From: Opitutales bacterium | GTDB lineage: Bacteria > Verrucomicrobiota > Verrucomicrobiia > Opitutales > UBA2987 | Direction of reading: 5' to 3' | Assembly (NCBI GenBank): GCA_965226885.1 | Contig: CBDDEL010000010.1 | Location: forward strand, 96,001 to 160,000 | DNA length: 64,000 nucleotides | In this document: positions 12,424-57,919 of the stretch, piece by piece | How the letters are laid out: each line of letters opens with the position of its first letter | How positions within the stretch are numbered: position 1 is the first letter of the stretch | Notes under the pieces: generated by a model | Databases searched by the model: none | What the model was told of the DNA's origin: nothing | Seen by the model: the letters and a program-made list of their open reading frames with translations, nothing else | Position numbers and translations under genes: made by a program

Positions 12424-12795
12424 TAATACCCAGTCCGTCGGCCAATGAATGTTAGCCTCCAAACAGGTGCCGTCGATCAGGCAAATGGTGGTGTCAATCG
12501 GCTTGTCCAATCCCACCTGCCGGGCCAGAAGGGCATCGGCCACCACCTCAGTCAAGGTCCGGTGCAAGGCCCTCAACTGCTCTTCGCTGAAAAACTTCGA
12601 GGCCCGCTCCAGGGTGCTTCTGGAGATGCCCCTGATGCCATCGATCTGCCGGACACGGCAAAAGTCGGCCAACAGATCGCTGCTGCCCAGAGCCCGCGAC
12701 AAATGCCGAAACGAAATCCCTCCGAGCAGACGGCCCAGCGTATCCATGCGCAGTGCCTTGATGGCAAAACTGGCCCGCTGCCGCCGGGCCTTTAG

Positions 12796-14362
12796 CCCGG
12801 ATATTTCGTAAAAAAAGTATCGTTGATATGCTTAACTGCTGATATACAGCAGGATAGATCAATAATTAAAGCAATATCAGCGATGACAAAAGGTAAACAA
12901 TTAAAGCTACAGTTGACAAGGGTAAAAGGCCGCCGTGTGCGGGTTGATTTCAAGGGCGGAGAGGTTACTTCGGATGCCGGACTGCTTTTGATCCGGGAAG
13001 TGGATCGGCAGTTGGGCTTGACCGAACGAGCGGCCCGACAGTTAGTGGACAAACGGCAGAAGGGCAAAGTACGCCATGAGGTATTGGGGATGCTGCGGCA
13101 GCGCGTTTACGGGCTGGTGGCGGGCTATGAGGATTTGAACGACTTTGATACCCTGCGCCACGATCCATTGTTGCCAACGGTAACGGGGCGCATTGAAACG
13201 TTGGCCAGCGCGCCGACTTTGTGTCGTTTTGAAAACGGGCAGGATCGGCGGGCGGCCTTTGCGGTAAACGAGCTGTTGGTCGAACAGTTCATGGGCTCCT
13301 TTGCCGAGGAACCCGAAGAGATCATCCTGGACTTTGACGCCACCGACAATCCGGTGCACGGGCTCCAGGAGGGACGTTTTTTCCACGGTTATTATGATCA
13401 TTACTGTTTTCTGCCGCTATATGTTTTTTGCGGTGATCAGCTGCTGGTGGCCTACCTGCGGCCGAGCAAGATCGATGCCAGCAAGCATGCCGGGGCCATC
13501 CTCAAATTGCTGGTTAAACGGATTCGCCAAAGCTGGCCCCGTACGCGGATTATTTGGCGCGCCGACAGTGGATTTTGTCGAGACCGGATACTCTCTTGGT
13601 GCGACCGCAACGAAGTTAGTTACATCGTGGGGATGGCTCGCAATGCACGCTTGCAGCAAGACGCCCAGCAGTTGCAAAAGCAGGCCAAAGAATGGTTCGA
13701 ACTAAGGGGTAAAAAACAACGGTTATTCCAGGACTTCGTCTATGCTGCCGATTCGTGGCGATGGCTGCGGTTGGTCATCCATAAAGCCGAACACACCGCA
13801 CAGGGGTCCAACCCGCGCTTCGTGGTGACGAACCTGCCGGGCGATCCCCAGGAGCTTTACGACAAGGTATACTGTGGCCGCGGTGAAATGGAGAACCGAA
13901 TCAAGGAACAGATGCAATTGTTCAGCGAGCGCACCAGCGCCCATCAATGATGGGCCAATCAGTGGCGATTGCTCTTGTCGGCGCTGGCCTACACCTTGAT
14001 GGAAGCCATGCGCCGGTTAGCCTTAAAAGGGACGAAGTGGGCGCGGGCCCAATGCCACACCCTGCGGCTCAAATTAATCAAGATCGGAGCGGTCATCGTG
14101 CGCAACACCCGAACGATTCACTTTCACCTAAGTGAGAGTTATCCTTGGGCCAGTCTTTTCAACCATGCGGCCCGCCGATTGGTGCCAACCTAAAGGGTGC
14201 ATTGGTGCTGCCCCCGGCACTACCGAACCAATGGGGGAAAGGGGGCAGTGTCTCTACACCCTGAAAAACACCTAAAAATCAAGACGATCTGCTCAAAATA
14301 CAAAGAAATCCATCTCCAATAGCAATAACGAGCCAAACTTTACCCTTCATGAAATATCCGGG
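12796..14362 (+). mobile_element. IS1380-family element type A, copy 1 (transposase has a premature TGA at 13948-13950)
   Basis: TIR CCCGGATATTTC, TSD TTAG; TGG>TGA relative to other copies. Confidence 0.93.
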
Positions 14363-14714
14363 TTAGACCCATTGGCTGCCACCCCTCCAAGGCCAGCTCA
14401 ATGGCCTGCGATTCCACCTCCGAGTCGATCAGCAGCCGATCGATTCGATCAATGGTGGCGCGGAAGTTATCGTAATCGAGGCACCGGTCGACCACAGTTA
14501 AAGCTGGACGCAGGAGGCATTGGATGGCTATATTTTTCATAGAAAGGGCTATATTGATTTTCGCTAACTCAATTATAGAACCCTTTTTTGGCCGGATCGA
14601 GCAAAAACTTGCTCTTTCCGGCTCTTTTTATCAACGTCATCCAGTTGACTATAAAATCTTTATATTTTTGGGACAGCCTCTATATAAGATAGAATATTAA
14701 GATTAAAGAACAAT

Positions 14715-19867: not shown

Positions 19868-22353
19868 ATGCAGATAAAGATTCATATGTTCTTGCTTTTT
19901 GCATTCATGGCAGTCTTCGCCTCTATCGGGCACGTCGCCAACGCGCAGACGCCTATCCCGGATAGCGCTCTTGAGGTTGCTATTCGCAATTCTTTAGGGA
20001 AACCTACGGGCGATATTACCGCCGCCGACATGGAATCGCTGACCAACCTTTCGGCCTCCTTCAGTGGCATCTCCGACCTGACCGGCTTGGAGGCGGCCGT
20101 GAATCTGACCTCGCTAGACCTCCCCGGCACCCAGATCAGTGATATCGGCACCCTGAGCGGACTCACCAACCTGACATCTCTAAACCTCTCCGTCAATCAG
20201 ATCAACGATATTAGCGCCCTAACCCGGATATTTCATGAAGGGTAAAGTTTGGCTCGTTATTGCTATTGGAGATGGAGATGGATTTCTTTGTATTTTGAGC
20301 AGATCGTCTTGATTTTTAGGTGTTTTTCAGGGTGTAGAGACACTGCCCCCTTTCCCCCATTGGTTCGGTAGTGCCGGGGGCAGCACCAATGCACCCTTTA
20401 GGTTGGCACCAATCGGCGGGCCGCATGGTTGAAAAGACTGGCCCAAGGATAACTCTCACTTAGGTGAAAGTGAATCGTTCGGGTGTTGCGCACGATGACC
20501 GCTCCGATCTTGATTAATTTGAGCCGCAGGGTGTGCCATTGGGCCCGCGCCCACTTCGTCCCTTTTAAGGCTAACCGGCGCATGGCTTCCATCAAGGTGT
20601 AGGCCAGCGCCGACAAGAGCAATCGCCACTGATTGGCCCACCATTGATGGGCGCTGGTGCGCTCGCTGAACAATTGCATCTGTTCCTTGATTCGGTTCTC
20701 CATTTCACCGCGGCCACAGTATACCTTGTCGTAAAGCTCCTGGGGATCGCCCGGCAGGTTCGTCACCACGAAGCGCGGGTTGGACCCCTGTGCGGTGTGT
20801 TCGGCTTTATGGATGACCAACCGCAGCCATCGCCACGAATCGACAGCATAGACGAAGTCCTGGAATAACCGTTGTTTTTTACCCCTTAGTTCGAACCATT
20901 CTTTGGCCTGCTTTTGCAACTGCTGGGCGTCTTGCTGCAAGCGTGCATTGCGAGCCATCCCCACGATGTAACTAACTTCGTAGCGGTCGCACCAAGAGAG
21001 TATCCGGTCTCGACAAAATCCACTGTCGGCGCGCCAAATAATCCGCGTACGGGGCCAGCTTTGGCGCATCCGTTTAACCAGCAATTTGAGGATGGCCCCG
21101 GCATGCTTGCTGGCATCGATCTTGCTCGGCCGCAGGTAGGCCACCAGCAGCTGATCACCGCAAAAAACATATAGCGGCAGAAAACAGTAATGATCATAAT
21201 AACCGTGGAAAAAACGTCCCTCCTGGAGCCCGTGCACCGGATTGTCGGTGGCGTCAAAGTCCAGGATGATCTCTTCGGGTTCCTCGGCAAAGGAGCCCAT
21301 GAACTGTTCGACCAACAGCTCGTTTACCGCAAAGGCCGCCCGCCGATCCTGCCCGTTTTCAAAACGACACACAGTCGGCGCGCTGGCCAACGTTTCAATG
21401 CGCCCCGTTACCGTTTGCAACAATGGATCGTGGCGCAGGGTATCAAAGTCGTTCAAATCCTCATAGCCCGCCACCAGCCCGTAAACGCGCTGCCGCAGCA
21501 TCCCCAATACCTCATGGCGTACTTTGCCCTTCTGCCGTTTGTCCACTAACTGTCGGGCCGCTCGTTCGGTCAAGCCCAACTGCCGATCCACTTCCCGGAT
21601 CAAAAGCAGTCCGGCATCCGAAGTAACCTCTCCGCCCTTGAAATCAACCCGCACACGGCGGCCTTTTACCCTTGTCAACTGTAGCTTTAATTGTTTACCT
21701 TTTGTCATCGCTGATATTGCTTTAATTATTGATCTATCCTGCTGTATATCAGCAGTTAAGCATATCAACGATACTTTTTTTACGAAATATCCGGGCTAAG
21801 CGGGCTCACCAACCTGACATCTCTAAACCTCTCCGGCAACCAGCTCAACGATATTAGCGCCCTGAGCGGGCTCGCCAGCCTAACATTGCTATTCCTCAAT
21901 TTCAGCCAGATCAGCGATATCAGCGCCCTGAGCGGGCTCACCAGCCTGATAGAGCTATACCTCTGGAACAACCAGATCAGGGATATCACCGCCCTGAGCG
22001 GGCTCACCAGCCTGAAAACGTTACGCCTTGGCGACAATCAGATCAGCAATATTAGCGCCCTGAGCGGGCTCACCAGCCTGATAGAGCTAAACCTCGGCTA
22101 CAACCAGAGCAACGATATCAGCGCCCTGAGCGGGCTCACCAGCCTGATAGAGCTATACCTCACCAACAACCAGCTCAGTGATATTAGTGCATTATCTGAA
22201 TTAACTAATCTTGTTTACCTGGATATTAGAACCAACTATCTCGATCTGCGGGAAGATTCGCGGGCACGGCAAGTTGTTGATGGACTACAAGTCAATGGCA
22301 CGGTAGTTGTTTATGACAATCAGCAGATTAAATTATCCCTACAAGTTCATTAG
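19868..22353 (+). pseudogene. Secreted internalin-like leucine-rich repeat protein split by IS1380
   Basis: Signal peptide, IPD..L...IR cap, 22-aa repeats LSGLTSL..L.L..NQI.DISA; removing the IS and one CTAA restores a 302-aa frame. Confidence 0.9.
20223..21795 (-). mobile_element. IS1380 type A copy 2 (transposase 20398-21768)
   Basis: TIR CCCGGATATTTC, TSD CTAA; open ORF with DFDATD, RADSGF, RGEMENRIKE. Confidence 0.95.
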
Positions 22354-23920
22354 CCCGGATATTTCGTAAAAAAAGTATCGTTGATATGCTTAACTGCTGA
22401 TATACAGCAGGATAGATCAATAATTAAAGCAATATCAGCGATGACAAAAGGTAAACAATTAAAGCTACAGTTGACAAGGGTAAAAGGCCGCCGTGTGCGG
22501 GTTGATTTCAAGGGCGGAGAGGTTACTTCGGATGCCGGACTGCTTTTGATCCGGGAAGTGGATCGGCAGTTGGGCTTGACCGAACGAGCGGCCCGACAGT
22601 TAGTGGACAAACGGCAGAAGGGCAAAGTACGCCATGAGGTATTGGGGATGCTGCGGCAGCGCGTTTACGGGCTGGTGGCGGGCTATGAGGATTTGAACGA
22701 CTTTGATACCCTGCGCCACGATCCATTGTTGCAAACGGTAACGGGGCGCATTGAAACGTTGGCCAGCGCGCCGACTGTGTGTCGTTTTGAAAACGGGCAG
22801 GATCGGCGGGCGGCCTTTGCGGTAAACGAGCTGTTGGTCGAACAGTTCATGGGCTCCTTTGCCGAGGAACCCGAAGAGATCATCCTGGACTTTGACGCCA
22901 CCGACAATCCGGTGCACGGGCTCCAGGAGGGACGTTTTTTCCACGGTTATTATGATCATTACTGTTTTCTGCCGCTATATGTTTTTTGCGGTGATCAGCT
23001 GCTGGTGGCCTACCTGCGGCCGAGCAAGATCGATGCCAGCAAGCATGCCGGGGCCATCCTCAAATTGCTGGTTAAACGGATTCGCCAAAGCTGGCCCCGT
23101 ACGCGGATTATTTGGCGCGCCGACAGTGGATTTTGTCGAGACCGGATACTCTCTTGGTGCGACCGCAACGAAGTTAGTTACATCGTGGGGATGGCTCGCA
23201 ATGCACGCTTGCAGCAAGACGCCCAGCAGTTGCAAAAGCAGGCCAAAGAATGGTTCGAACTAAGGGGTAAAAAACAACGGTTATTCCAGGACTTCGTCTA
23301 TGCTGCCGATTCGTGGCGATGGCTGCGGTTGGTCATCCATAAAGCCGAACACACCGCACAGGGGTCCAACCCGCGCTTCGTGGTGACGAACCTGCCGGGC
23401 GATCCCCAGGAGCTTTACGACAAGGTATACTGTGGCCGCGGTGAAATGGAGAACCGAATCAAGGAACAGATGCAATTGTTCAGCGAGCGCACCAGCGCCC
23501 ATCAATGGTGGGCCAATCAGTGCCGATTGCTCTTGTCGGCGCTGGCCTACACCTTGATGGAAGCCATGCGCCGGTTAGCCTTAAAAGGGACGAAGTGGGC
23601 GCGGGCCCAATGCCACACCCTGCGGCTCAAATTAATCAAGATCGGAGCGGTCATCGTGCGCAACACCCGAACGATTCACTTTCACCTAAGTGAGAGTTAT
23701 CCTTGGGCCAGTCTTTTCAACCATGCGGCCCGCCGATTGGTGCCAACCTAAAGGGTGCATTGGTGCTGCCCCCGGCACTACCGAACCAATGGGGGAAAGG
23801 GGGCAGTGTCTCTACACCCTGAAAAACACCTAAAAATCAAGACGATCTGCTCAAAATACAAAGAAATCCATCTCCAATAGCAATAACGAGCCAAACTTTA
23901 CCCTTCATGAAATATCCGGG
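22354..23920 (+). mobile_element. IS1380 type A copy 3 (transposase 22381-23751)
   Basis: Same TIRs, TSD TTAG overlapping the LRR stop codon. Confidence 0.95.
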
Positions 23921-31165: not shown

Positions 31166-31239
31166 TCCTCCTTTCTAGGATAAGCGTACCGGTTTTAAAG
31201 CGCCCTCTTTACCGTACCGGTTTTTCCCCGGCGTTTACA

Positions 31240-31660
31240 CTTCGTCCCTTTTAAGGCTAACCGGCGCATGGCTTCCATCAAGGTGTAGGCCAGCGCCGAC
31301 AAGAGCAATCGCCACTGATTGGCCCACCATTGATGGGCGCTGGTGCGCTCGCTGAACAATTGCATCTGTTCCTTGATTCGGTTCTCCATTTCACCGCGGC
31401 CACAGTATACCTTGTCGTAAAGCTCCTGGGGATCGCCCGGCAGGTTCGTCACCACGAAGCGCGGGTTGGACCCCTGTGCGGTGTGTTCGGCTTTATGGAT
31501 GACCAACCGCAGCCATCGCCACGAATCGGCAGCATAGACGAAGTCCTGGAATAACCGTTGTTTTTTACCCCTTAGTTCGAACCATTCTTTGGCCTGCTTT
31601 TGCAACTGCTGGGCGTCTTGCTGCAAGCGTGCATTGCGAGCCATCCCCACGATGTAACTA
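31240..31660 (-). pseudogene. Internal fragment of IS1380 type A
   Basis: Matches other copies; bounded by IS21 and IS-A ends. Confidence 0.9.
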
Positions 31661-31855
31661 GAGGCTGTCCCAAAAGGGTGATTTTTGCGAGGGCTTTTGA
31701 TAGGCGCTCATTTTAGAGGTATTTGCATTTGGGAGAGTATCAACTTTGCTCTCCTATGACGTTAGGATACTGGTTTTGGGGTCCGGTTGCCTGGTTTTCT
31801 TTGTATGAGCCGACAGTAAGGCTGTGAAAAAGTATTGTCCTTGCTTTTCCGCTCT

Positions 31856-33337
31856 CTAGGCCGCCGCTTTGGTTTTTAGTTCGTCTTGCTGGGCCAGCAT
31901 CTTGGCTACTTTCCATAGGTTGTGCGAGAGTACCGACCAGGCTACGCTGATCGAGCGGTTGGCAAAGCCTTTGCTGCGCAACCGCCCGGCCTGCCAGCGA
32001 TTCTTCAATACCCCGATCCGCCCTTCGGTGCTGGCCCGGCGCTTTTGCAATTGTCTGAACAGTGGTTCCTCCATCCGGTTTTTCAACTGCTTCGGATCGC
32101 GTGGACAGAGCGCGTCGTAGATTCCCTCCTGGGCTAACTGCCGGCGGGCCCGCTGGGAGGCAAATCCCCGGTCCGCGCACATGGCCGCTATGGGTTCTTC
32201 CAGGTTGAAGCGGTTCTGTCTTTGCAAACTCTCTTGCATTTGTTCATTTTCGCTTGGAGTTCGGCTGCCGTAGAGTTTCCAGTCCAGCAGGTACCCTTCA
32301 ACGCTTTCTCCCAAAAACAGGGTGTTGCCGAACTCGACCTCTTGGCCCGCTTTACCTCGCACAATCACCTGCCCATCGAGTTCGTAAACACTCAAGACTT
32401 TCTCTGCGTTTTTCACCTGGCGGCCGCCAATGATCCGCTCGTGCGCCTGTTTGATGACCACCGGGATTTGCTCGCTCATGCGCTCCATCCGGGCGAGGAT
32501 CTGTTGGACCTGTTTTTCGCTGTAATCGCTTTGCTCCCAGCAGGCTTGCAATAATTCCCGGTGACTGCGGGCATGCTCCCCGAGCCGTTTGAGCAGCTTT
32601 TTCATCTGCCTCAAGATACCCTTGCGCTGCCGCGCGCTGTCCTTTCGCCGCCGGCTGTGGGTCATCTGTATGCACAGCCGATTCATCTGCCGAGCCAAGG
32701 GCTCCGGTTCGATCGGCATGCGATGGCGCACACCGGCCTTCTCGCGGATCAGCCGGATCGCTTTGAGCAACGTGCCGGCTACATCCTTGAGTAATACCCA
32801 GTCCGTCGGCCAATGAATGTTAGCCTCCAAACAGGTGCCGTCGATCAGGCAAATGGTGGTGTCAATCGGCTTGTCCAATCCCACCTGCCGGGCCAGAAGG
32901 GCATCGCCCACCACCTCAGTCAAGGTCCGGTGCAAGGCCCTCAACTGCTCTTCGCTGAAAAACTTCGAGGCCCGCTCCAGGGTGCTTTTGGAGATGCCCC
33001 TGATGCCATCGATCTGCCGGACACGGCAAAAGTCGGCCAACAGATCGCTGCTGCCCAGAGCCCGCGACAAATGCCGAAACGAAATCCCTCCGAGCAGACG
33101 GCCCAGCGTATCCATGCGCAGTGCCTTGATGGCAAAACTGGCCCGCTGCCGCCGGGCCTTTAGACCCATTGGCGGCCACCCCTCCAAGGCCAGCTCAATG
33201 GCCTGCGATTCCACCTCCGAGTCGATCAGCAGCCGATCGATTCGATCAATGGTGGCGCGGAAGTTATCGTAATCGAGGCACCGGTCGACCACAGTTAAAG
33301 CTGGACGCAGGAGGCATTGGATGGCTATATTTTTCAT
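31856..33337 (-). CDS. IS5-like DDE transposase (true start MKNIAIQ)
   Basis: IDGTCLEANIHWPTD..LL, RGKAG..VEFG, ADRGF, R...EG.IG.LK. Confidence 0.85.
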   Translation of the reverse strand: MKNIAIQCLLRPALTVVDRCLDYDNFRATIDRIDRLLIDSEVESQAIELALEGWPPMGLKARRQRASFAIKALRMDTLGRLLGGISFRHLSRALGSSDLLADFCRVRQIDGIRGISKSTLERASKFFSEEQLRALHRTLTEVVGDALLARQVGLDKPIDTTICLIDGTCLEANIHWPTDWVLLKDVAGTLLKAIRLIREKAGVRHRMPIEPEPLARQMNRLCIQMTHSRRRKDSARQRKGILRQMKKLLKRLGEHARSHRELLQACWEQSDYSEKQVQQILARMERMSEQIPVVIKQAHERIIGGRQVKNAEKVLSVYELDGQVIVRGKAGQEVEFGNTLFLGESVEGYLLDWKLYGSRTPSENEQMQESLQRQNRFNLEEPIAAMCADRGFASQRARRQLAQEGIYDALCPRDPKQLKNRMEEPLFRQLQKRRASTEGRIGVLKNRWQAGRLRSKGFANRSISVAWSVLSHNLWKVAKMLAQQDELKTKAAA

Positions 33338-33679
33338 AGAAAGGGCTATAGGCGGATCCTCCAGCAGTTGGTCTTCGAGCCCCTGCCGGAACTCTCCGTC
33401 CCAGGCATTTTCTCCGGGCAGGCACTTGATCCGCTCCACCAAAAACTCCCCGCCCTGCGCGCGAGATCAAGCATGAGTTCAGGCCCCACCTGACTCTTCA
33501 TCGCTCCGCGTCGAGTCCGTATGACGTTTCTCGTCTTCTATATTCGGTGTCACAACTAACTGCGGCGTGATGCTTTAGATAACACAACAGAATTTTCGAT
33601 GGGTTTCGTTTCCCATGGCCCGTTTCTCGAACTGCCTTTCGACCCGCTCACTCCTCCTTCGTCGAGCCGCCCCGCCCAA

Positions 33680-33825
33680 TACGAACCGTCCCGGACTGTC
33701 GCAAAGATAAACGGCCACCTGGGCCACCTGATGAGCACTCGTCCCCTGGCTACCAACAATAGGCCATGAAGGCGATGCTCGTAGGAAGATTGCTCGCTTC
33801 GACGGATTTCACCTTGCAAGACCAA
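33680..33825 (-). pseudogene. IS630-like transposase N-terminal remnant
   Basis: EIRRSE.S.Y.HRLHG.LLVA.G. Confidence 0.5.
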
Positions 33826-33899
33826 GCTAGGGGCGCGCCACGGGCAGCCATCCCTGCACCGGCGTGCCCAACCGGATAGCGCCCCGCGTCTTCAGCGAT

Positions 33900-34075
33900 G
33901 CGGCTTGCGATACGGTTGGCGGCGGCCTTGAGGGAACCGTAGGCGAGGTGGGTGTAGCGGCGGCGGTCTGCACCTTGTTGTGCCGGAGCAGGTTTCCAAT
34001 CATGGGCAGCGCCTCGCCGACCGGAAACCCGTTTCTGGCATAGCTATGTCCAAAAGGTCGTAAATGCGCTACCAA
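33900..34075 (-). pseudogene. Tyrosine recombinase C-terminal remnant
   Basis: Degenerate HS.A....GE.LPMIG.LL.H..VQT box. Confidence 0.55.
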
Positions 34076-34163
34076 AGCTCACGAAAAGAGGCGTGCCGCG
34101 CTTGAAGTCGGGCATCACCCGGGGGGGTTGCCTTCCTAAAGTGCGCCGCGGCGCTGAAGCTCT

Positions 34164-36689
34164 TCAAAAACTGTAGCCGAGCTTTCCGTACCAGAAGGCG
34201 CCATCAAACCCAAAGGGGCAGAACTGGCCGTATTTGTTGCCAGTAGTCGCGGCGGACTTCGGATTTTCGTCAGGGTAATTGTTGAAGACGTTCTGAGCGC
34301 CCGCCGTTAAGGTGATTCGATCCGTAAGGGAGTAGTTGACTTCGAAATCAACGAGGAATTCGTCTCCGTAGGTTTGACTATCCTCGGAATCATGCCAGGA
34401 ACTATAGTAACGGCCGCGGCCCAGCAGATTCCAGCGATCCAGCATGGGCTGCGTCAGGGTTATGGTTGCCCGATGCCTGGGAAGACCCTCCTGTAATTCC
34501 CGGATGCGGACGTCGTTTATCGTCTCGGGGCTGAACTGGGTGACTTCCGTATTCGTGTAGTTATAACCGAGGCTCAGTTCACCCTCCCGCACTCCGGTCG
34601 ACAGAACGACGTCGATGCCGCGGGTTTCCGTGTCAAAGTCATTGATGAAAAAGACGTACTCCACCAGATTGTAGGCGTCGGTGATGCCCGTAGCGAACAA
34701 TTGATCGCGCTCTGCATCCGTAAACTCGAAGTCCTGTGAGAGCGACATGCGGTTCTTCACGTCGATGCCGAAATAATCGACCGTGATTACCGTATTGCCC
34801 ATATCGACAACGAAGCCGATACTGAAGTTGGTCGATTTTTCAGGCGTGAGCGCCTCGCCGCCCCTCCCCATCGCAACGGGATTGGTGGGAGGAATCACGG
34901 CCCTGGTGATTAGTTCCATTCGGTCCGCTTGAAATTCAGTGGTTACGTTGAAAGCGTTTTGCTGACCGGGAGTGGGGGCCCGGAAACCGGTGTTGAAGCT
35001 CCCGCGCACCTTCAGATTCTCGTTGATGCCGTAGGTGGTCGCCAGCTTATAGTTGATTGTGCCTCCGAAATCATTGAATTCTTCATAGCGCAAAGCGGCG
35101 GCAACCAACCAGTCGTCGGTCAGCTCGTATTCCGCGTCCACGTAGACGGCATAGTTGGAGCGGTCCCATATACCGGCGGCGCTATCACCGAAACCCGAGA
35201 AACCGTTGGAAGCACCCCTGAATCCCTGCTGATGCAGAGCCTGGCCGATCGCATATGACTCGGGTTGCCCCCTCACGATTTCAAACTCCTCGACACGGTA
35301 TTCGAAGCCACTGGCGAGGAACAACTGCTCGCTTAGCGGATAGGTCACGCCAAAGTTGAGGTTGATTTCGGTCTGAATATAATCACCGGGATCGAAATAA
35401 GTCGGAGTATCGGGGCCGAGAGAGGCGTTGACGGTATTAAAGATAAAGAAATCAGTGTGATGACGCCCGTAAGCAGCGCTGAAATCCAAGCCGAGTTTCG
35501 ATCCGGTTGTTCTCACCCCGGCGACAATGGATTGGTCCTTCGCGTACCCGCCAAAGCGGGGCGTGAAACCGCCGGGGAAGAGTTCCTGAAAGGTGAACAG
35601 ATTGGGATCGTCGAACACCTGTTGCAAAGCGACGGGGTCCGGCACATGGTTAGTTATCGTTACCACAGGGACCTTGGACTCATCGCCATCCAAAGCGCCC
35701 ACCAGCAACGTTTTTCCGGCGTCATTACTGAATACGCCGCGTCGCGTATTGGGATTGCGGTAATAGAACCCGCCCTCCACTTCCTTGCTCGCGTAGTTGG
35801 CATGACCGTAGAACTCGAGGTTCCCGCCTATGGCGGCGCCGTAATTGGCAAACAATTTGAGATCGTCCCGAACGAAGGGTTGACCCCAGATTTGAGCGGG
35901 ATTCGCCACCTCGCTGTTTCCCACCGCGATCAGAGCAGCGGCGTCATCTCGCTGCACGGAGCGGATGGTCTCGCCAGAGTTGCCGTACTCCCCGCTGAGA
36001 TTGATCCAGGCCTTTTCGCTGCCCAAGCCGATATTGCCGGCGATGGAAACTGCTTCGCCGCCACCGTCCTGGTAAATCCCCGTTCGAACGATGAGAGACC
36101 CTCCTTCGTAACTGTCGTTGAGCTCGAAGTTCAACACCCCCGCAATGGCATCGGAACCGTACTGCGCCGAAGCTCCGTCGCGCAGCACTTCAATCCGTTT
36201 CAGAGCGAGCGCGGGAATGGGGGCTACATCGGGCCCCTGTGCGCCATCGGCGACGCCGTTGCCCAACCAGTGAATCACGGACGCGCGGTGGCGGCGCTTG
36301 CCGTTGATGAGCACCAGCGTATGGTCCGGCGGCAGCCCGCGTATATTGAGCGGCCGAACGATCGTCGAGGAGTCGCTGATCGGCTGGGTATTGACGTTGT
36401 AAGAGGGGATGACGTTCCTCAATAGATCCTGTAAATCAGTGAAGCCTTGCATGGTGAGGGATTCGCCGGCGAATGTATCGACGGGCACCGCTGAATCAAC
36501 CACCGAACGCGGCTCCGCCCGCGAACCGATGATGACCAGTTCTTCGAGGACCTGCAGATTCTCGGAGTCGTCCCGGGGCTCGGACGGGGCTGGGGTCGAG
36601 TGAACGCTTTCGGGCTGCAGCACCTCCTGCGCGAAGGCATTTAAAGGAAGCAATGCAAGTATGGTAAGAGTAATTGTAGAAAGTCTCAT
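34164..36689 (-). CDS. TonB-dependent outer-membrane receptor
   Basis: Signal peptide (MRLSTITL), TonB box LEELVIIGSR, plug (RGL..DHTLVLINGKR, IEVLRDGASAQYGSDAIAGV), terminal YSF. Confidence 0.95.
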   Translation of the reverse strand: MRLSTITLTILALLPLNAFAQEVLQPESVHSTPAPSEPRDDSENLQVLEELVIIGSRAEPRSVVDSAVPVDTFAGESLTMQGFTDLQDLLRNVIPSYNVNTQPISDSSTIVRPLNIRGLPPDHTLVLINGKRRHRASVIHWLGNGVADGAQGPDVAPIPALALKRIEVLRDGASAQYGSDAIAGVLNFELNDSYEGGSLIVRTGIYQDGGGEAVSIAGNIGLGSEKAWINLSGEYGNSGETIRSVQRDDAAALIAVGNSEVANPAQIWGQPFVRDDLKLFANYGAAIGGNLEFYGHANYASKEVEGGFYYRNPNTRRGVFSNDAGKTLLVGALDGDESKVPVVTITNHVPDPVALQQVFDDPNLFTFQELFPGGFTPRFGGYAKDQSIVAGVRTTGSKLGLDFSAAYGRHHTDFFIFNTVNASLGPDTPTYFDPGDYIQTEINLNFGVTYPLSEQLFLASGFEYRVEEFEIVRGQPESYAIGQALHQQGFRGASNGFSGFGDSAAGIWDRSNYAVYVDAEYELTDDWLVAAALRYEEFNDFGGTINYKLATTYGINENLKVRGSFNTGFRAPTPGQQNAFNVTTEFQADRMELITRAVIPPTNPVAMGRGGEALTPEKSTNFSIGFVVDMGNTVITVDYFGIDVKNRMSLSQDFEFTDAERDQLFATGITDAYNLVEYVFFINDFDTETRGIDVVLSTGVREGELSLGYNYTNTEVTQFSPETINDVRIRELQEGLPRHRATITLTQPMLDRWNLLGRGRYYSSWHDSEDSQTYGDEFLVDFEVNYSLTDRITLTAGAQNVFNNYPDENPKSAATTGNKYGQFCPFGFDGAFWYGKLGYSF

Positions 36690-36770
36690 TGGTATCTGAA
36701 TATGACCATTACACCACTCAACCAACTCGAGGTCAAGTCCGGATTCTACTGCCAGGGTAGAAAGATTCTA

Positions 36771-37114
36771 GGTTCCTCGACGTTTTCAGTGGTACATTGC
36801 GGAGGGGATGTTGAGTTTACCGACGGCGAAGTGGAGCATGGTGATTAGCTTCTTTAGTGGTGTGATGGCCTCTGGCTTTGCGTTTGGTTGCGCTAAAGAC
36901 ACTGTTGAGTTCTTCAATGCAGGTATTGGTGAAGTGCGATTCCCAGTGGGCGAGGGTTTCCTCTTGGTGATTTTCGATTATGTTGGCCCATGGGTTTAAG
37001 GAAGCCTCGCCATGATGCTTACACATTGCGGTAATAACGTTCGAAATAGGTACTCAGGTTGCGTCTTCTCAGTAAAGGATATTGTGCCAGTACCACTGAA
37101 AACGTCGAGGAACC
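36771..37114. mobile_element. Internally deleted (MITE-like) ISL3 element
   Basis: 25-bp perfect TIR GGTTCCTCGACGTTTTCAGTGGTAC, 8-bp TSD AGATTCTA, remnant E.LNS.F...KRKARG. Confidence 0.88.
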
Positions 37115-37217
37115 AGATTCTAAGACGCAACTAGCTGATAAGCAGCTGATAAGCAAAAAGATAAAAAAAGAGCTAGACAATCCCGAATAAATCAGTCATG
37201 TTAAGATGGTATGAAAG

Positions 37218-38917
37218 CCGAGATTTCCCATATGAACATTCGTAATCGTTGAAAATAGCTACTTTCTAATATTTCGATCCAATTTTCTGCTTTCAATGTG
37301 ATTTTGCAATCCTTTCCTTGGTTATTTGATGATCAAATCGGCAGTATTTAACAATTATTGCTGATTTTCCCTTTGCTTGGTCAAATCAGGGAAAGATATT
37401 TCCTTCTGTTGGAGGTTTCCACAGCACTGATTCCCACAGCACTGATTCCTTTTGTATCGAAAAATCTTCTTACTCACCCCGTATCAGGTGCGAGTCGCAG
37501 TCGCTCTACTCGCTTGAGCATGGTTCGAAACATTTCTCTTGGGATGGCCACCTCAGCCATCTGGAAAGTGATATACTTGGCATGGTGGATCACCTTTGCT
37601 CCGATTTTGATGAGTTTCTCCCGCAAAGAGCTCAGCATCTAGTGCTTCACCTTGCCAGGAAGAATCAACCGGCGCATGAAGTTGCCCAGATTGTAGGCTA
37701 AGCCGAAGAGCTGAAGCCGAACGGCATTGTCCTCAAAGTCATGGCAGGACAAGCGGGTCCAGTGGATGGCATGTTTGCCCTCTTTGATCCACTGCTCTGC
37801 GGTGCCCCGGTGGTTGTAAAATTTCACTACCTTCCTGGGTGGCCAGTTCAGATTTGTCACGATGAAACCGACCCGCGCAAATAACTCTCCGGCCTGCCAC
37901 TCGACCTTGGCCACCACCCGGCGAGGTCTCTGCCAACTAGCGGCTTGATACGGAAAACTGGCATAAAACACCTTGGGTGCCCACGAGGGTCGCCCCACTG
38001 GCCGAGTGAGTAAAGGGGCGATATGTTTTTGTAAAATCGTGTTGCTCTGCAGCCGAATGGCATAGGAGAAGTTCTCTTGCTCAAGGTAACCGTAGAGGTC
38101 CGGATTGGCGAAGGCTGCGTCACCTCGGAAAAATCGTTTCAGGGGACAGTCACGATAGCGGGCAACGACCGGTTGGAGCACCGACAACCAATCGTCGGCA
38201 CTGTGCACATTGCCTTTACGCAGGTTGGCCCGTTCCAGATCACCAAACTGGTTGAAGCAGAACAGGGGATGGTAACAGGTGCAGCCGAAATGACCGTTGA
38301 AGGCTGAGCCTTCCTGCTTCCCGTAAGTAGGGCTCTCCGAACTATCCATATCGAGAATCAATTTTTTCATCCCCACTCGCCTATTCACCTGGTCGATCCA
38401 TTGACCACTCATGTCCATCAGTGCGCTCAGATTCGCAGGCTTGGTTAACATCTGTGTTTCAAAGCGGCTCATTTCACTGGGCGAAGCCGCCGGTTGCCAA
38501 TCGGCACGACCCCCGACAATCTGCCTCATGACCGGATCAAAGCGCAGGCGCTCCGCATCGTTCGTATCTTTGTATCCTGCCAGGCGACTAAAGACAGACT
38601 GCCGAAGCAGAGCCGTTCTGCCGTGCTGGATATTTTTGCCCGTGCGCTCCTCCACCACATTTTTGCTTCCTATTGCAGTCAGCCCGAAAGCCTCATCGAG
38701 TTCCCGGTAGAGTAACAATCCTGCATCACTGGTAACCTTCGCACCGTGGAACTCCAACTTGATTCGGCGGTTGAATTGAACCCGAAAACTGCTCTTTTTT
38801 GCGTCACCCATTGGATTTTAAGAATTTGCTCGTTATAAGTATATTTAAGTAACTTATTATTAAACACATAGCGCTTATTTCAAGCTAATTTTCTTATGAT
38901 GAAATGGGAAATATGGG
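37218..38917 (-). mobile_element. IS1380 type B copy 1 (transposase 38811-37639 with premature TAG)
   Basis: Imperfect TIRs CCGAGATTTCCCAT / ATGGGAAATATGGG; TSDAG, LDMDSS, RGDAAF, RGTAEQWIKE. Confidence 0.9.
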
Positions 38918-39049
38918 CTATATTGATTTTCGCTAACTCAATTATAGAACCCTTTTTTGGCCGGATCGAGCAAAAACTTGCTCTTTCCGGCTCTTTTTAT
39001 CAACGTCATCCAGTTGACTATAAAATCTTTATATTTTTGGGACAGCCTC

Positions 39050-39143
39050 TAGGTACAGATTGTTTTGCGTTCCGACTGCAAGACGTTAGGGAACCGGTTA
39101 AAATGGCACATAAGCAAAGACTGCTTACTATTCGAGTATTCAT
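39050..39143 (-). pseudogene. Lipoprotein 5' end truncated by IS-A (possible first integron cassette)
   Basis: MNTRIVSSLCLCAILTGSLTSC with LTSC lipobox, AGGTGG RBS. Confidence 0.55.
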
Positions 39144-56267: not shown

Positions 56268-56466
56268 GAGGCTGTCCCAAAAGGGTGATTTTTGCGAGGG
56301 CTTTTGATAGGCGCTCATTTTAGAGGTATTTGCATTTGGGAGAGTATCAACTTTGCTCTCCTATGACGTTAGGATACTGGTTTTGGGGTCCGGTTGCCTA
56401 GTTTTCTTTGTATGAGCCGACAGTAAGGCTGTGAAAAAGTATTGTCCTTGCTTTTCCGCTCTCTAG
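56268..56466 (-). mobile_element. IS-A terminal fragment
   Basis: GAGGCTGTCCCAAAA end and 3' UTR up to the CTAG containing the stop codon. Confidence 0.9.
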
Positions 56467-57919
56467 CCCGGATATTTCATGAAGGGTAAAGTTTGGCTCG
56501 TTATTGCTATTGGAGATGGATTTCTTTGTATTTTGAGCAGATCGTCTTGATTTTTAGGTGTTTTTCAGGGTGTAGAGACACTGCCCCCTTTCCCCCATTG
56601 GTTCGGTAGTGCCGGGGGCAGCACCAATGCACCCTTTAGGTTGGCACCAATCGGCGGGCCGCATGGTTGAAAAGACTGGCCCAAGGATAACTCTCACTTA
56701 GGTGAAAGTGAATCGTTCGGGTGTTGCGCACGATGACCGCTCCGATCTTGATTAATTTGAGCCGCAGGGTGTGGCATTGGGCCCGCGCCCACTTCGTCCC
56801 TTTTAAGGCTAACCGGCGCATGGCTTCCATCAAGGTGTAGGCCAGCGCCGACAAGAGCAATCGCCACTGATTGGCCCACCATTGATGGGCGCTGGTGCGC
56901 TCGCTGAACAATTGCATCTGTTCCTTGATTCGGTTCTCCATTTCACCGCGGCCACAGTATACCTTGTCGTAAAGCTCCTGGGGATCGCCCGGCAGGTTCG
57001 TCACCACGAAGCGCGGGTTGGACCCCTGTGCGGTGTGTTCGGCTTTATGGATGACCAACCGCAGCCATCGCCACGAATCGGCAGCATAGACGAAGTCCTG
57101 GAATAACCGTTGTTTTTTACCCCTTAGTTCGAACCATTCTTTGGCCTGCTTTTGCAACTGCTGGGCGTCTTGCTGCAAGCGTGCATTGCGAGCCATCCCC
57201 ACGATGTAACTAACTTCGTTGCGGTCGCACCAAGAGAGTATCCGGTCTCGACAAAATCCACTGTCGGCGCGCCAAATAATCCGCGTACGGGGCCAGCTTT
57301 GGCGAATCCGTTTAACCAGCAATTTGAGGATGGCCCCGGCATGCTTGCTGGCATCGATCTTGCTCGGCCGCAGGTAGGCCACCAGCAGCTGATCACCGCA
57401 AAAAACATATAGCGGCAGAAAACAGTAATGATCATAATAACCGTGGAAAAAACGTCCCTCCTGGAGCCCGTGCACCGGATTGTCGGTGGCGTCAAAGTCC
57501 AGGATGATCTCTTCGGGTTCCTCGGCAAAGGAGCCCATGAACTGTTCGACCAACAGCTCGTTTACCGCAAAGGCCGCCCGCCGATCCTGCCCGTTTTCAA
57601 AACGACACAAAGTCGGCGCGCTGGCCAACGTTTCAATGCGCCCCGTTACCGTTTGCAACAATGGATCGTGGCGCAGGGTATCAAAGTCGTTCAAATCCTC
57701 ATAGCCCGCCACCAGCCCGTAAACGCGCTGCCGCAGCATCCCCAATACCTCATGGCGTACTTTGCCCTTCTGCCGTTTGTCCACTAACTGTCGGGCCGCT
57801 CGTTCGGTCAAGCCCAACTGCCGATCCACTTCCCGGATCAAAAGCAGTCCGGCATCCGAAGTAACCTCTCCGCCCTTGAAATCAACCCGCACACGGCGGC
57901 CTTTTACCCTTGTCAACTG
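56467..57919 (-). mobile_element. IS1380 type A copy 4, 5' end truncated by IS1
   Basis: TIR after CTAG; ORF 56636-57916 lacks its N-terminus. Confidence 0.92.

Follow-up and report, generated by a model that had tools for sequence, protein, structure and literature searches.

A putative one-ended IS1380-family transposition unit carrying an intact TonB-dependent receptor gene in the genome of an Opitutales bacterium

We analysed a 64,000-bp window (G000:C10:96001-160000) of the 5.48-Mb genome of an Opitutales bacterium (G000), in which a copy of an abundant insertion sequence (IS), here called IS-A, is interrupted by a 5,567-bp insert consisting of a different element, IS1380-B, and an adjoining stretch of DNA with a TonB-dependent receptor gene. 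Position numbers are window coordinates unless a contig is named. The window is rich in insertion sequences, and its sequence was also found in public sequencing runs labelled as sponge metagenome and in several coded organisms. Four such runs were compared in the form of Logan contigs (X15, X16, and X19 are run codes), and the genomes used for comparison include G032, G008, G045, G112, G209, and G248.

IS-A is a 1,821-bp ISNCY/IS5-like element with the ends GAGGCTGTCCCAAAA, and 109 of its 241 BLAST pieces in the genome are near-full copies. Its transposase scored 206 bits with the NCBIfam ISNCY model, which does not reach the model cut-off of 325, and 117 bits with the IS5 model. The interrupted copy, recognized by the shared ends and the NCBIfam matches, lies on the minus strand and aligns with IS-A from 31659 to 33350 and again from 38915 to 39051; it is in turn carried by a piece (31238-31658) of IS-D, a second IS1380-family element. 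The left part of the copy (31659-33350) measures 1,692 bp, and the right part (38918-39051) is made up of one target-duplication copy and the 129 bp that reach to the end of IS-A. The insert between them (33351-38917) has the pentamer CTATA on either side (33346-33350 and 38918-38922) and entered IS-A ∼12 bp away from the ATG of the IS-A transposase gene (33338-33336). The two IS-A alignments overlap by 8 bp, GGGCTATA, which comprise the 5-bp CTATA target and the terminal GGG of the inserted element itself. The window contains one corresponding empty site, AAAGGGCTATATTGATTT (14543-14560; none expected from 100 shuffles), the genome has 157 exact copies of it, and it is present in contigs of three of the four public runs. 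Genome-wide, three copies of the left junction (IS-A/CTATA/GGCGGATCC) and four of the right junction (..ATATGGG/CTATA/TTGATTT) were found, the fourth left junction being missing at a contig end. A preliminary description of this DNA, made from the sequence alone, had proposed that one IS-A copy is interrupted, that another supplies the empty site, and that a 5.57-kb insert lies between CTATA repeats, and these observations bear it out.

IS1380-B, the element that forms the right-hand part of the insert, extends over 1,700 bp on the minus strand (37218-38917). Its downstream inverted repeat (IR; 37218-37237) reads CCGAGATTTCCCATATGAAC and its upstream IR (38898-38917, reverse complement) reads CCCATATTTCCCATTTCATC, with matches at 15 of the 20 positions. 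We found 10 other upstream ends (left inverted repeats, IRL) at distinct genomic sites, counting once a site that was listed as two identical rows, and all of them finish in GGG with differing flanks. Therefore, the right end of the insert is the IS1380-B end at 38917, just as the preliminary description had identified it with the exact upstream IR, and the caveat raised there, that the repeat might be read as the 8-bp GGGCTATA, loses much of its force since these 10 ends assign the GGG to IS1380-B. At the downstream end, other copies share CCGAGATTTCCC from 37218 onward and have unrelated flanks. When the 12 listed upstream-end flanks were compared with the genome, an empty site was found for the flank of the unit only and for none of the other IS1380-B copies.

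The sole reading frame of IS1380-B, on the minus strand (37474-38811), codes for a transposase over 390 codons up to a TAG codon (37639-37641), which is followed by 53 more codons in frame. The product matched the NCBIfam model NF033539 (IS1380 family transposase) at 334.9 bits (cut-off, 180) and Pfam PF13701 (DDE_Tnp_1_4) at an E value of 4e-115; in tblastn searches of plasmids, protein identity was 60-63% to IS1247-type transposases and 24% to that of ISEcp1. Members of the IS1380 family are about 1.5-2 kb long, have short terminal inverted repeats beginning with CC, and make target duplications of 4-5 bp. Judged by its DDE transposase model, length, and terminal repeats, IS1380-B belongs to this family, and within it to the IS1247 group. 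For comparison, the tabulated values for IS1247 are 1,672 bp, an IR of 16/13, and a 5-bp duplication (PMC3281130, Table 2). The nonsense codon (TGG to TAG) is present in all four copies of the unit in the genome, and the codon is TGG in all seven other relatives that span the position, each of which is interrupted, truncated, or internally deleted. We found no IS1380-B transposase gene in the genome that is intact, as it would be in an autonomous element. A promoter-like site directed outward to the cargo (TTGAAA-17-AATATT; 37268-37296, minus strand) is a consensus match only, at 9 of 12 positions; six promoter-like sites were found compared with 3.6 ± 1.9 in shuffled sequences. We also noted ∼28 solo pieces of the IS1380-B downstream end scattered over the genome, which comprise only its first ∼93-100 bp (window element positions 37218-37310), have a constant inner boundary (..TTTCAATRYGMTTTGGCAAT) followed by unrelated DNA, and include the outward promoter-like site; six of them lie in G000:C12:55453-68293. 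Upstream ends of IS1380-B, found at 11 distinct sites, are far rarer than these solo downstream ends.

The junction of IS1380-B with the cargo can be compared with its state before the IS arrived. G032, which belongs to a different family of the same order, has the sequence of window 33818-37217 at 96% identity but without IS1380-B, and it reads ..GGTATGAAAG|ACAAAAAATC.. across the point at which IS1380-B starts; a contig of run X15 likewise goes on with ACAAAAAATC.. past 37217. The continuation in G032 is a 453-aa ORF for an ISAs1-family transposase (NCBIfam ISAs1, 110.6 bits; cut-off, 70), of which the window retains the upstream region and the first 7 bases (ATGAAAG) on the plus strand (37123-37217), where it is cut by IS1380-B. 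Because both G032 and the X15 contig continue without the IS, 37217/37218 is a genuine insertion point, and IS1380-B sits in codon 3 of the ISAs1-family gene. It follows from the IS-free junction in G032 that the DNA to the left of 37218 is the neighbor of IS1380-B on the 3′ side of its transposase gene.

The far (left) end of the insert, at 33351, lies 3,867 bp past the downstream end of IS1380-B at 37218, in agreement with the 3.9 kb given in the preliminary description. The first 115 bases of the insert, read on the minus strand, code for 38 residues, 24 of 35 of which are identical to residues 44-78 of a 498-aa Pyridoxal_deC protein of G112 (E value, 2e-15). This sequence is the 5′ fragment of a pyridoxal phosphate-dependent decarboxylase pseudogene (33351-33536, minus strand) that is cut at about codon 78. 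In G045, G209, G248, and G112, homologous sequence runs unbroken across the position equivalent to 33351, and the far end therefore lies inside a gene. In this genome, no other repeat ends at 33351; a BLAST search with 33351-37200 returned the four unit copies only. The far end is an arbitrary cut and no element terminus. The possibility, also raised in the preliminary description, that a different element ends at 33351 is thus contradicted by decarboxylase coding sequence in place of a repeat terminus. An 892-nt contig of run X15 is identical in its first 219 letters to 33351-33569, whereas the remaining 673 letters have no counterpart in the window. Two kinds of contig variant were also seen around this end in the public runs. 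For window 33001-33350, contigs of runs X16 and X19 differ by 24 additional letters placed between 33493 and 33483, and three runs have one contig each in which 33057 is connected with 38933; these appear to be variants of IS-A or of the unit.

The unit as a whole (33351-38917, minus strand) thus consists of IS1380-B and 3,867 bp of cargo past its downstream IR. Next to the decarboxylase fragment lies a truncated and internally deleted IS630-like remnant (33537-33826, minus strand) that corresponds at 74-78% identity to both ends of a ∼1.2-kb repeat of G008, the ORFs of which match DDE_3 and HTH_23. It is followed by a 337-bp spacer common to G032 (33827-34163) and by the receptor gene (34164-36689, minus strand), which codes for 841 aa from an ATG at 36689 or, in the ORF listing, for 853 aa from a TTG at 36725. 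The gene is intact, as had been claimed, with both the Plug domain (68.5 bits) and the barrel (122.2 bits), and the receptor begins with a signal-peptide-like N terminus (MRLSTITLTI). No NCBIfam model for a receptor subfamily reached its cut-off. At the DNA level, the gene is 96% identical to its homolog in G032 and 91% identical to that in G008; because both homologs lie amid transposase genes, gene context is uninformative on the substrate. The cargo had also been said to hold transposase and integrase scraps. The ISL3 and IS630-like transposase scraps are indeed there, but no similarity to an integrase was detected in the spacer by any tool (Pfam up to an E value of 5, BLASTP against an integrase of G032, and tblastn against plasmids). 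The expectation that the genome has a TonB/ExbBD system is consistent with eight TonB_C matches and seven ExbD matches above cut-off; 21 Plug-domain matches were found genome-wide, 4 of which are the unit copies. As to other locations of the cargo, a search suggested in the preliminary description, it was found in the four unit copies of this genome and, at 96% identity and without IS1380-B, in G032.

Between the receptor gene and the ISAs1-family fragment lies a 344-bp miniature inverted-repeat transposable element (MITE; 36771-37114) with 25-bp perfect terminal repeats and the ISL3 transposase scrap, flanked by an 8-bp duplication, AGATTCTA, at 36763-36770 and 37115-37122. In G032 (L009 13267-13627), the MITE is found at the same site in the opposite orientation, with the 8-bp target allele GGATTCTA compared with AGATTCTA here. 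Because the orientation differs and each genome duplicates its own target allele, this suggests that the MITE may have inserted twice independently at a hot spot. MITE copies of G000, G006, and G032 are 99-100% identical, and in one sponge-metagenome run the word depth of the MITE was 347 compared with 3-5 for the cargo. G032 and G000 also share another segment, of 3 kb, at 99.5% identity (L009 5381-8393 and G000:C14:435228-438212), which contains two outer-membrane β-barrel genes and an IS1380-type transposase scrap. Judged by this identity, it is probably the product of a further recent exchange between the two lineages.

Taken together, a single IS lies at one border of the insert, where the terminus of the unit is the upstream IR of that IS; the cargo starts directly at the downstream IR, beyond the 3′ end of the transposase gene; the far end is not an IS terminus; and the entire unit, at a site known in its empty form, is framed by a 5-bp duplication of the length given for IS1247. 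No IS1380-B sequence was found at or near 33351, where a composite transposon would have its second copy of the IS. This anatomy can be read directly from the assembled DNA, as can the empty site and the two junctions, and so can the fact that the far end is arbitrary. We consider it probable that the insert is a one-ended IS1380 unit, i.e. a transposable module (TMo) like those of ISPme1 and IS1247a or a transposition unit of the ISEcp1 type. We infer that the transposase of IS1380-B was the agent and that it picked the far end by mis-recognition. IS1380-B would first have landed in codon 3 of the ISAs1-family transposase gene beside the TonB-dependent receptor gene, in an IS-rich patch of DNA common to bacteria of different families. 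During a single subsequent transposition, the genuine upstream IR (now at 38917) would have been used together with a surrogate end at 33351, in the decarboxylase pseudogene, which would have replaced the genuine downstream repeat at 37218, 3,867 bp nearer. The resulting 5,567-bp unit would have entered IS-A 12 bp upstream of the transposase start codon, with duplication of CTATA. After capture, the transposase gene would have gained its TAG codon, and the unit would have come to occupy four loci as part of IS-A, itself nested in IS-D. An in-silico trap assembled from copies of IS-A, IS-C, and IS-D yielded 108 insertions with overlaps of 0-15 bp, among which the unit (three full entries and a nested listing of the copy on contig C9) was the sole carrier of low-copy DNA; we interpret the only further entry that contains single-copy segments, a 13.5-kb gap in IS-D, as chromosomal DNA with half an IS on either side.

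Several observations weigh against such a one-ended capture. Apart from the four units, no uninterrupted full-length IS1380-B exists in the genome, and the transposase of the unit is itself broken. Matching flanks, from which the duplication length of IS1380-B itself could be read, were present at none of five other two-ended loci; in 159 of its 218 copies, the sister element IS-D is framed by 4-bp duplications, and the CTATA repeat can formally be read as the 8-bp GGGCTATA. The far end, GGCGGATCCTCCAG, matches the IR at 6 of 14 positions, and at least 6 of 14 matches occur at 11% of 3,850 cargo positions, some unused positions matching at 9-10 of 14 (one position at 10 of 14). Thus, although the preliminary description counted these six matches correctly, they are at chance level and carry no evidential weight. 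The donor locus is absent from this genome and was not found among 41 relatives, 401 genomes of the order, and 401 genomes of the class. Further, only one unit, rather than several of differing length, was found for IS1380-B, and variable end points, by which the mechanism is defined experimentally, are therefore not demonstrable here. With regard to the donor, the left 480 bp of the unit matched 12 of the 401 genomes of the order, none of them besides G000 at more than 79% identity, and no genome of the class but G000 at E ≤ 1e-10 (n = 401). Exact scans of genome and metagenome contigs with a 30-mer from the left end and a 25-mer from the cargo/IS junction gave no hits for either, in scans that possibly did not include the source-genome records.

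We weighed four other explanations for the insert. It is conceivable that it arose in two steps, in which IS1380-B alone entered IS-A at CTATA and the cargo was added later by recombination with a cargo-linked copy of IS1380-B. IS copies do recombine here (IS-A flanks are permuted, and 59 of 218 IS-D copies have non-identical flanks), but the two crossovers involved would have been of different kinds, one homologous and within IS1380-B, the other illegitimate and falling exactly at the edge of the 5-bp duplication. In addition, the insertion into the ISAs1-family gene explains the cargo/IS junction, so that cargo and IS adjoined before the move, and IS1380-B alone was seen in IS-A at this site in none of the 157 empty and 4 filled sites. 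Such a course of events appears highly improbable. Another possibility is a composite or two-ended element, in which case the left border would once have carried an end that no longer exists (a further IS1380-B copy, a solo end, or a MITE). The ∼28 scattered solo downstream-end pieces could act as such ends; however, no IS1380-B-like sequence is found between 33351 and 37217, and because CTATA directly abuts 33351, the lost end must have been removed to the base. This origin seems slightly more doubtful than a two-step one.

Even less credence, in our view, is due to a different element that makes 8-bp duplications of GGGCTATA and has its ends at 33351 and 38914, with the IS1380-B end adjacent by coincidence. 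The repeat as it stands is 8 bp long, and ISL3-type elements in this DNA do make 8-bp duplications, but GGG is part of IS1380-B at 10 other upstream ends, no further copies of such an element were found, and 33351 lies within decarboxylase coding sequence with no repeat terminus. The presence of GGG in the target has a chance of 1/64 and is unremarkable. The least probable explanation is an assembly artefact caused by mis-joins amid hundreds of IS copies. The genome is extremely repeat-rich, and bridging of 33350/33351 was not visible among the matches listed for the four public runs, which is uninformative either way. Yet both junctions were assembled identically at three loci, and the right junction at four, in differing contexts; three indels set the copies apart, which therefore do not represent one collapsed repeat; and a target duplication is not expected from a mis-join.

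Although a one-ended capture is thus the explanation we favor, the copies of the unit do not stem from repeated capture. The complete IS-A::unit arrangement is found on contigs C10 (the window), C11, and C9, and a copy on C16 is cut by the contig end, with an identical position within IS-A in all of them. Over 5,577 aligned columns, to which C16 contributes 4,337 bases, the four unit copies show no substitutions. They differ by an 11-bp tandem duplication (C10 and C11; window 37133-37143), a 30-bp tandem duplication (C9, about 19960-19989), and a 14-bp deletion (C16, about 948100), both tandem duplications being perfect. Because the four copies share one insertion site and the TAG codon, there was only one IS1380-B event; the fourfold copying is due to the outer elements or to recombination, and IS1380-B had no part in it. 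Accordingly, the mechanism proposed in the preliminary description finds support, but the wording that it “is moving” genes in this genome is too strong.

Two routes could account for the spread of the unit: the outer elements may have transposed, or IS copies may have undergone homologous recombination with one another. The element IS-D is 1,573 bp long, is present in 218 end-to-end copies, and codes for a protein 33% identical to the IS1380-B transposase. An identical 4-bp sequence of the form YTAR flanks 159 of these copies (CTAG, 62; TTAG, 52; CTAA, 38; TTAA, 5; CTAT, 2), and in the other 59 the two flanking tetramers, each likewise YTAR, differ from one another. The C9 copy of IS-A::unit has IS-D flanks on both sides, and the C10 and C11 copies have one each. 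Three unit-free IS-A copies sit in the same IS-D site as the C9 copy, i.e. the IS-A duplication at C9 is an IS-D site already held by these three. For transposition of the 7.4-kb IS-A::unit as a whole, an IS-A duplication of its own was not seen in the copies, and the flanks of the C10 and C11 copies do not match. Further, three IS-A copies have flanks that are cyclically permuted among the targets TAGGTA, TAATTA, and TAACTA (window 39052, right flank; G000:C11:161817, left flank; and G000:C14:338480-340300), which points to homologous recombination between IS copies. Other IS-D copies in the window lie at 12792-14367, 20264-21799, 22350-23885, and 56462-57919; IS-D copies lie within a region of 66-nt periodic repeats with leucine-rich-repeat-like coding (20087-22245; families D1 and D4).

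The significance of the locus lies in a well documented, natural case of one-ended IS1380 capture outside clinical bacteria, the strengths of which are an abundant internal empty-site control, an IS-free donor junction elsewhere, and a far end within a gene. It would mean that this mechanism moves genes for outer-membrane uptake in environmental, host-associated bacteria and that a captured gene can go on spreading as the passenger of other insertion sequences once its own transposase is dead. A more far-reaching view, that the IS nests are a selected vehicle for the dosage and exchange of nutrient-uptake genes rather than neutral debris, seems to us rather unlikely. If it were true, a nest of three layers (an IS1380 module in an ISNCY-like IS in a highly active IS1380-family IS) would be that vehicle, in which the outer layers or recombination raised an intact receptor gene to four substitution-free copies, and the sponge-associated host, laden with insertion sequences, would also be exchanging the receptor gene with bacteria of other families.

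The mechanism itself is not new, as mobilization of adjacent genomic DNA by single IS1380-family elements, in the form of TMos, has already been published. A TMo is described as one copy of an IS1380-family element plus adjacent genomic DNA of varied length (PMC3281130), and for ISPme1 and ISEcp1 the account in PMC9330008 (section 7.3) is of one IS with its upstream IR at one terminus, cargo past the downstream IR (for ISPme1, on the 3′ side of the transposase gene), and an arbitrary far end; the surrogate ends are said there only to “resemble” the IR. The modules of ISPme1 and IS1247a come from work on Paracoccus (Bartosik et al. 2008 and Szuplewska & Bartosik 2009, as cited in PMC3281130 and PMC9330008). 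As these two accounts present them, these modules carry ordinary genomic DNA, which corrects the view, taken in the preliminary description, that such capture mainly concerns resistance genes. As far as they are described there, the ISPme1 and IS1247a modules resemble the present unit in the 5-bp duplication (IS1247), in their ordinary genomic cargo, in the transposase (that of IS1380-B is 60% identical to an annotated IS1247-family transposase), and in that a published mosaic TMo also involves an ISAs1-family element. Unlike the unit described here, which is a single one from a natural genome, has a broken transposase, is nested in two further insertion sequences, and occurs in four copies, they were caught on a trap plasmid.

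Units of ISEcp1 (ISEc9) with blaCTX-M or blaCMY are alike in family, in order (upstream IR, transposase, downstream IR, cargo, and surrogate end), in the 5-bp duplication, and in a cargo gene that lies downstream of the transposase gene and is co-directional with it. They differ in that the transposases share only 24% protein identity, in that the cargo here is a TonB-dependent receptor gene and not a resistance gene, in that the outward promoter here is a consensus match only, and in that 492 bp, including the MITE, separate the IS from the listed gene start at 36725. A further precedent is IS1247 in Xanthobacter autotrophicus GJ10, where van der Ploeg et al. in 1995 reportedly found it together with dhlB, a haloacetate dehalogenase gene, under laboratory selection. 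There, as here, an IS1247-type element would have mobilized an adjoining gene that is not a resistance gene, albeit in another host, with another cargo, and under selection in the laboratory.

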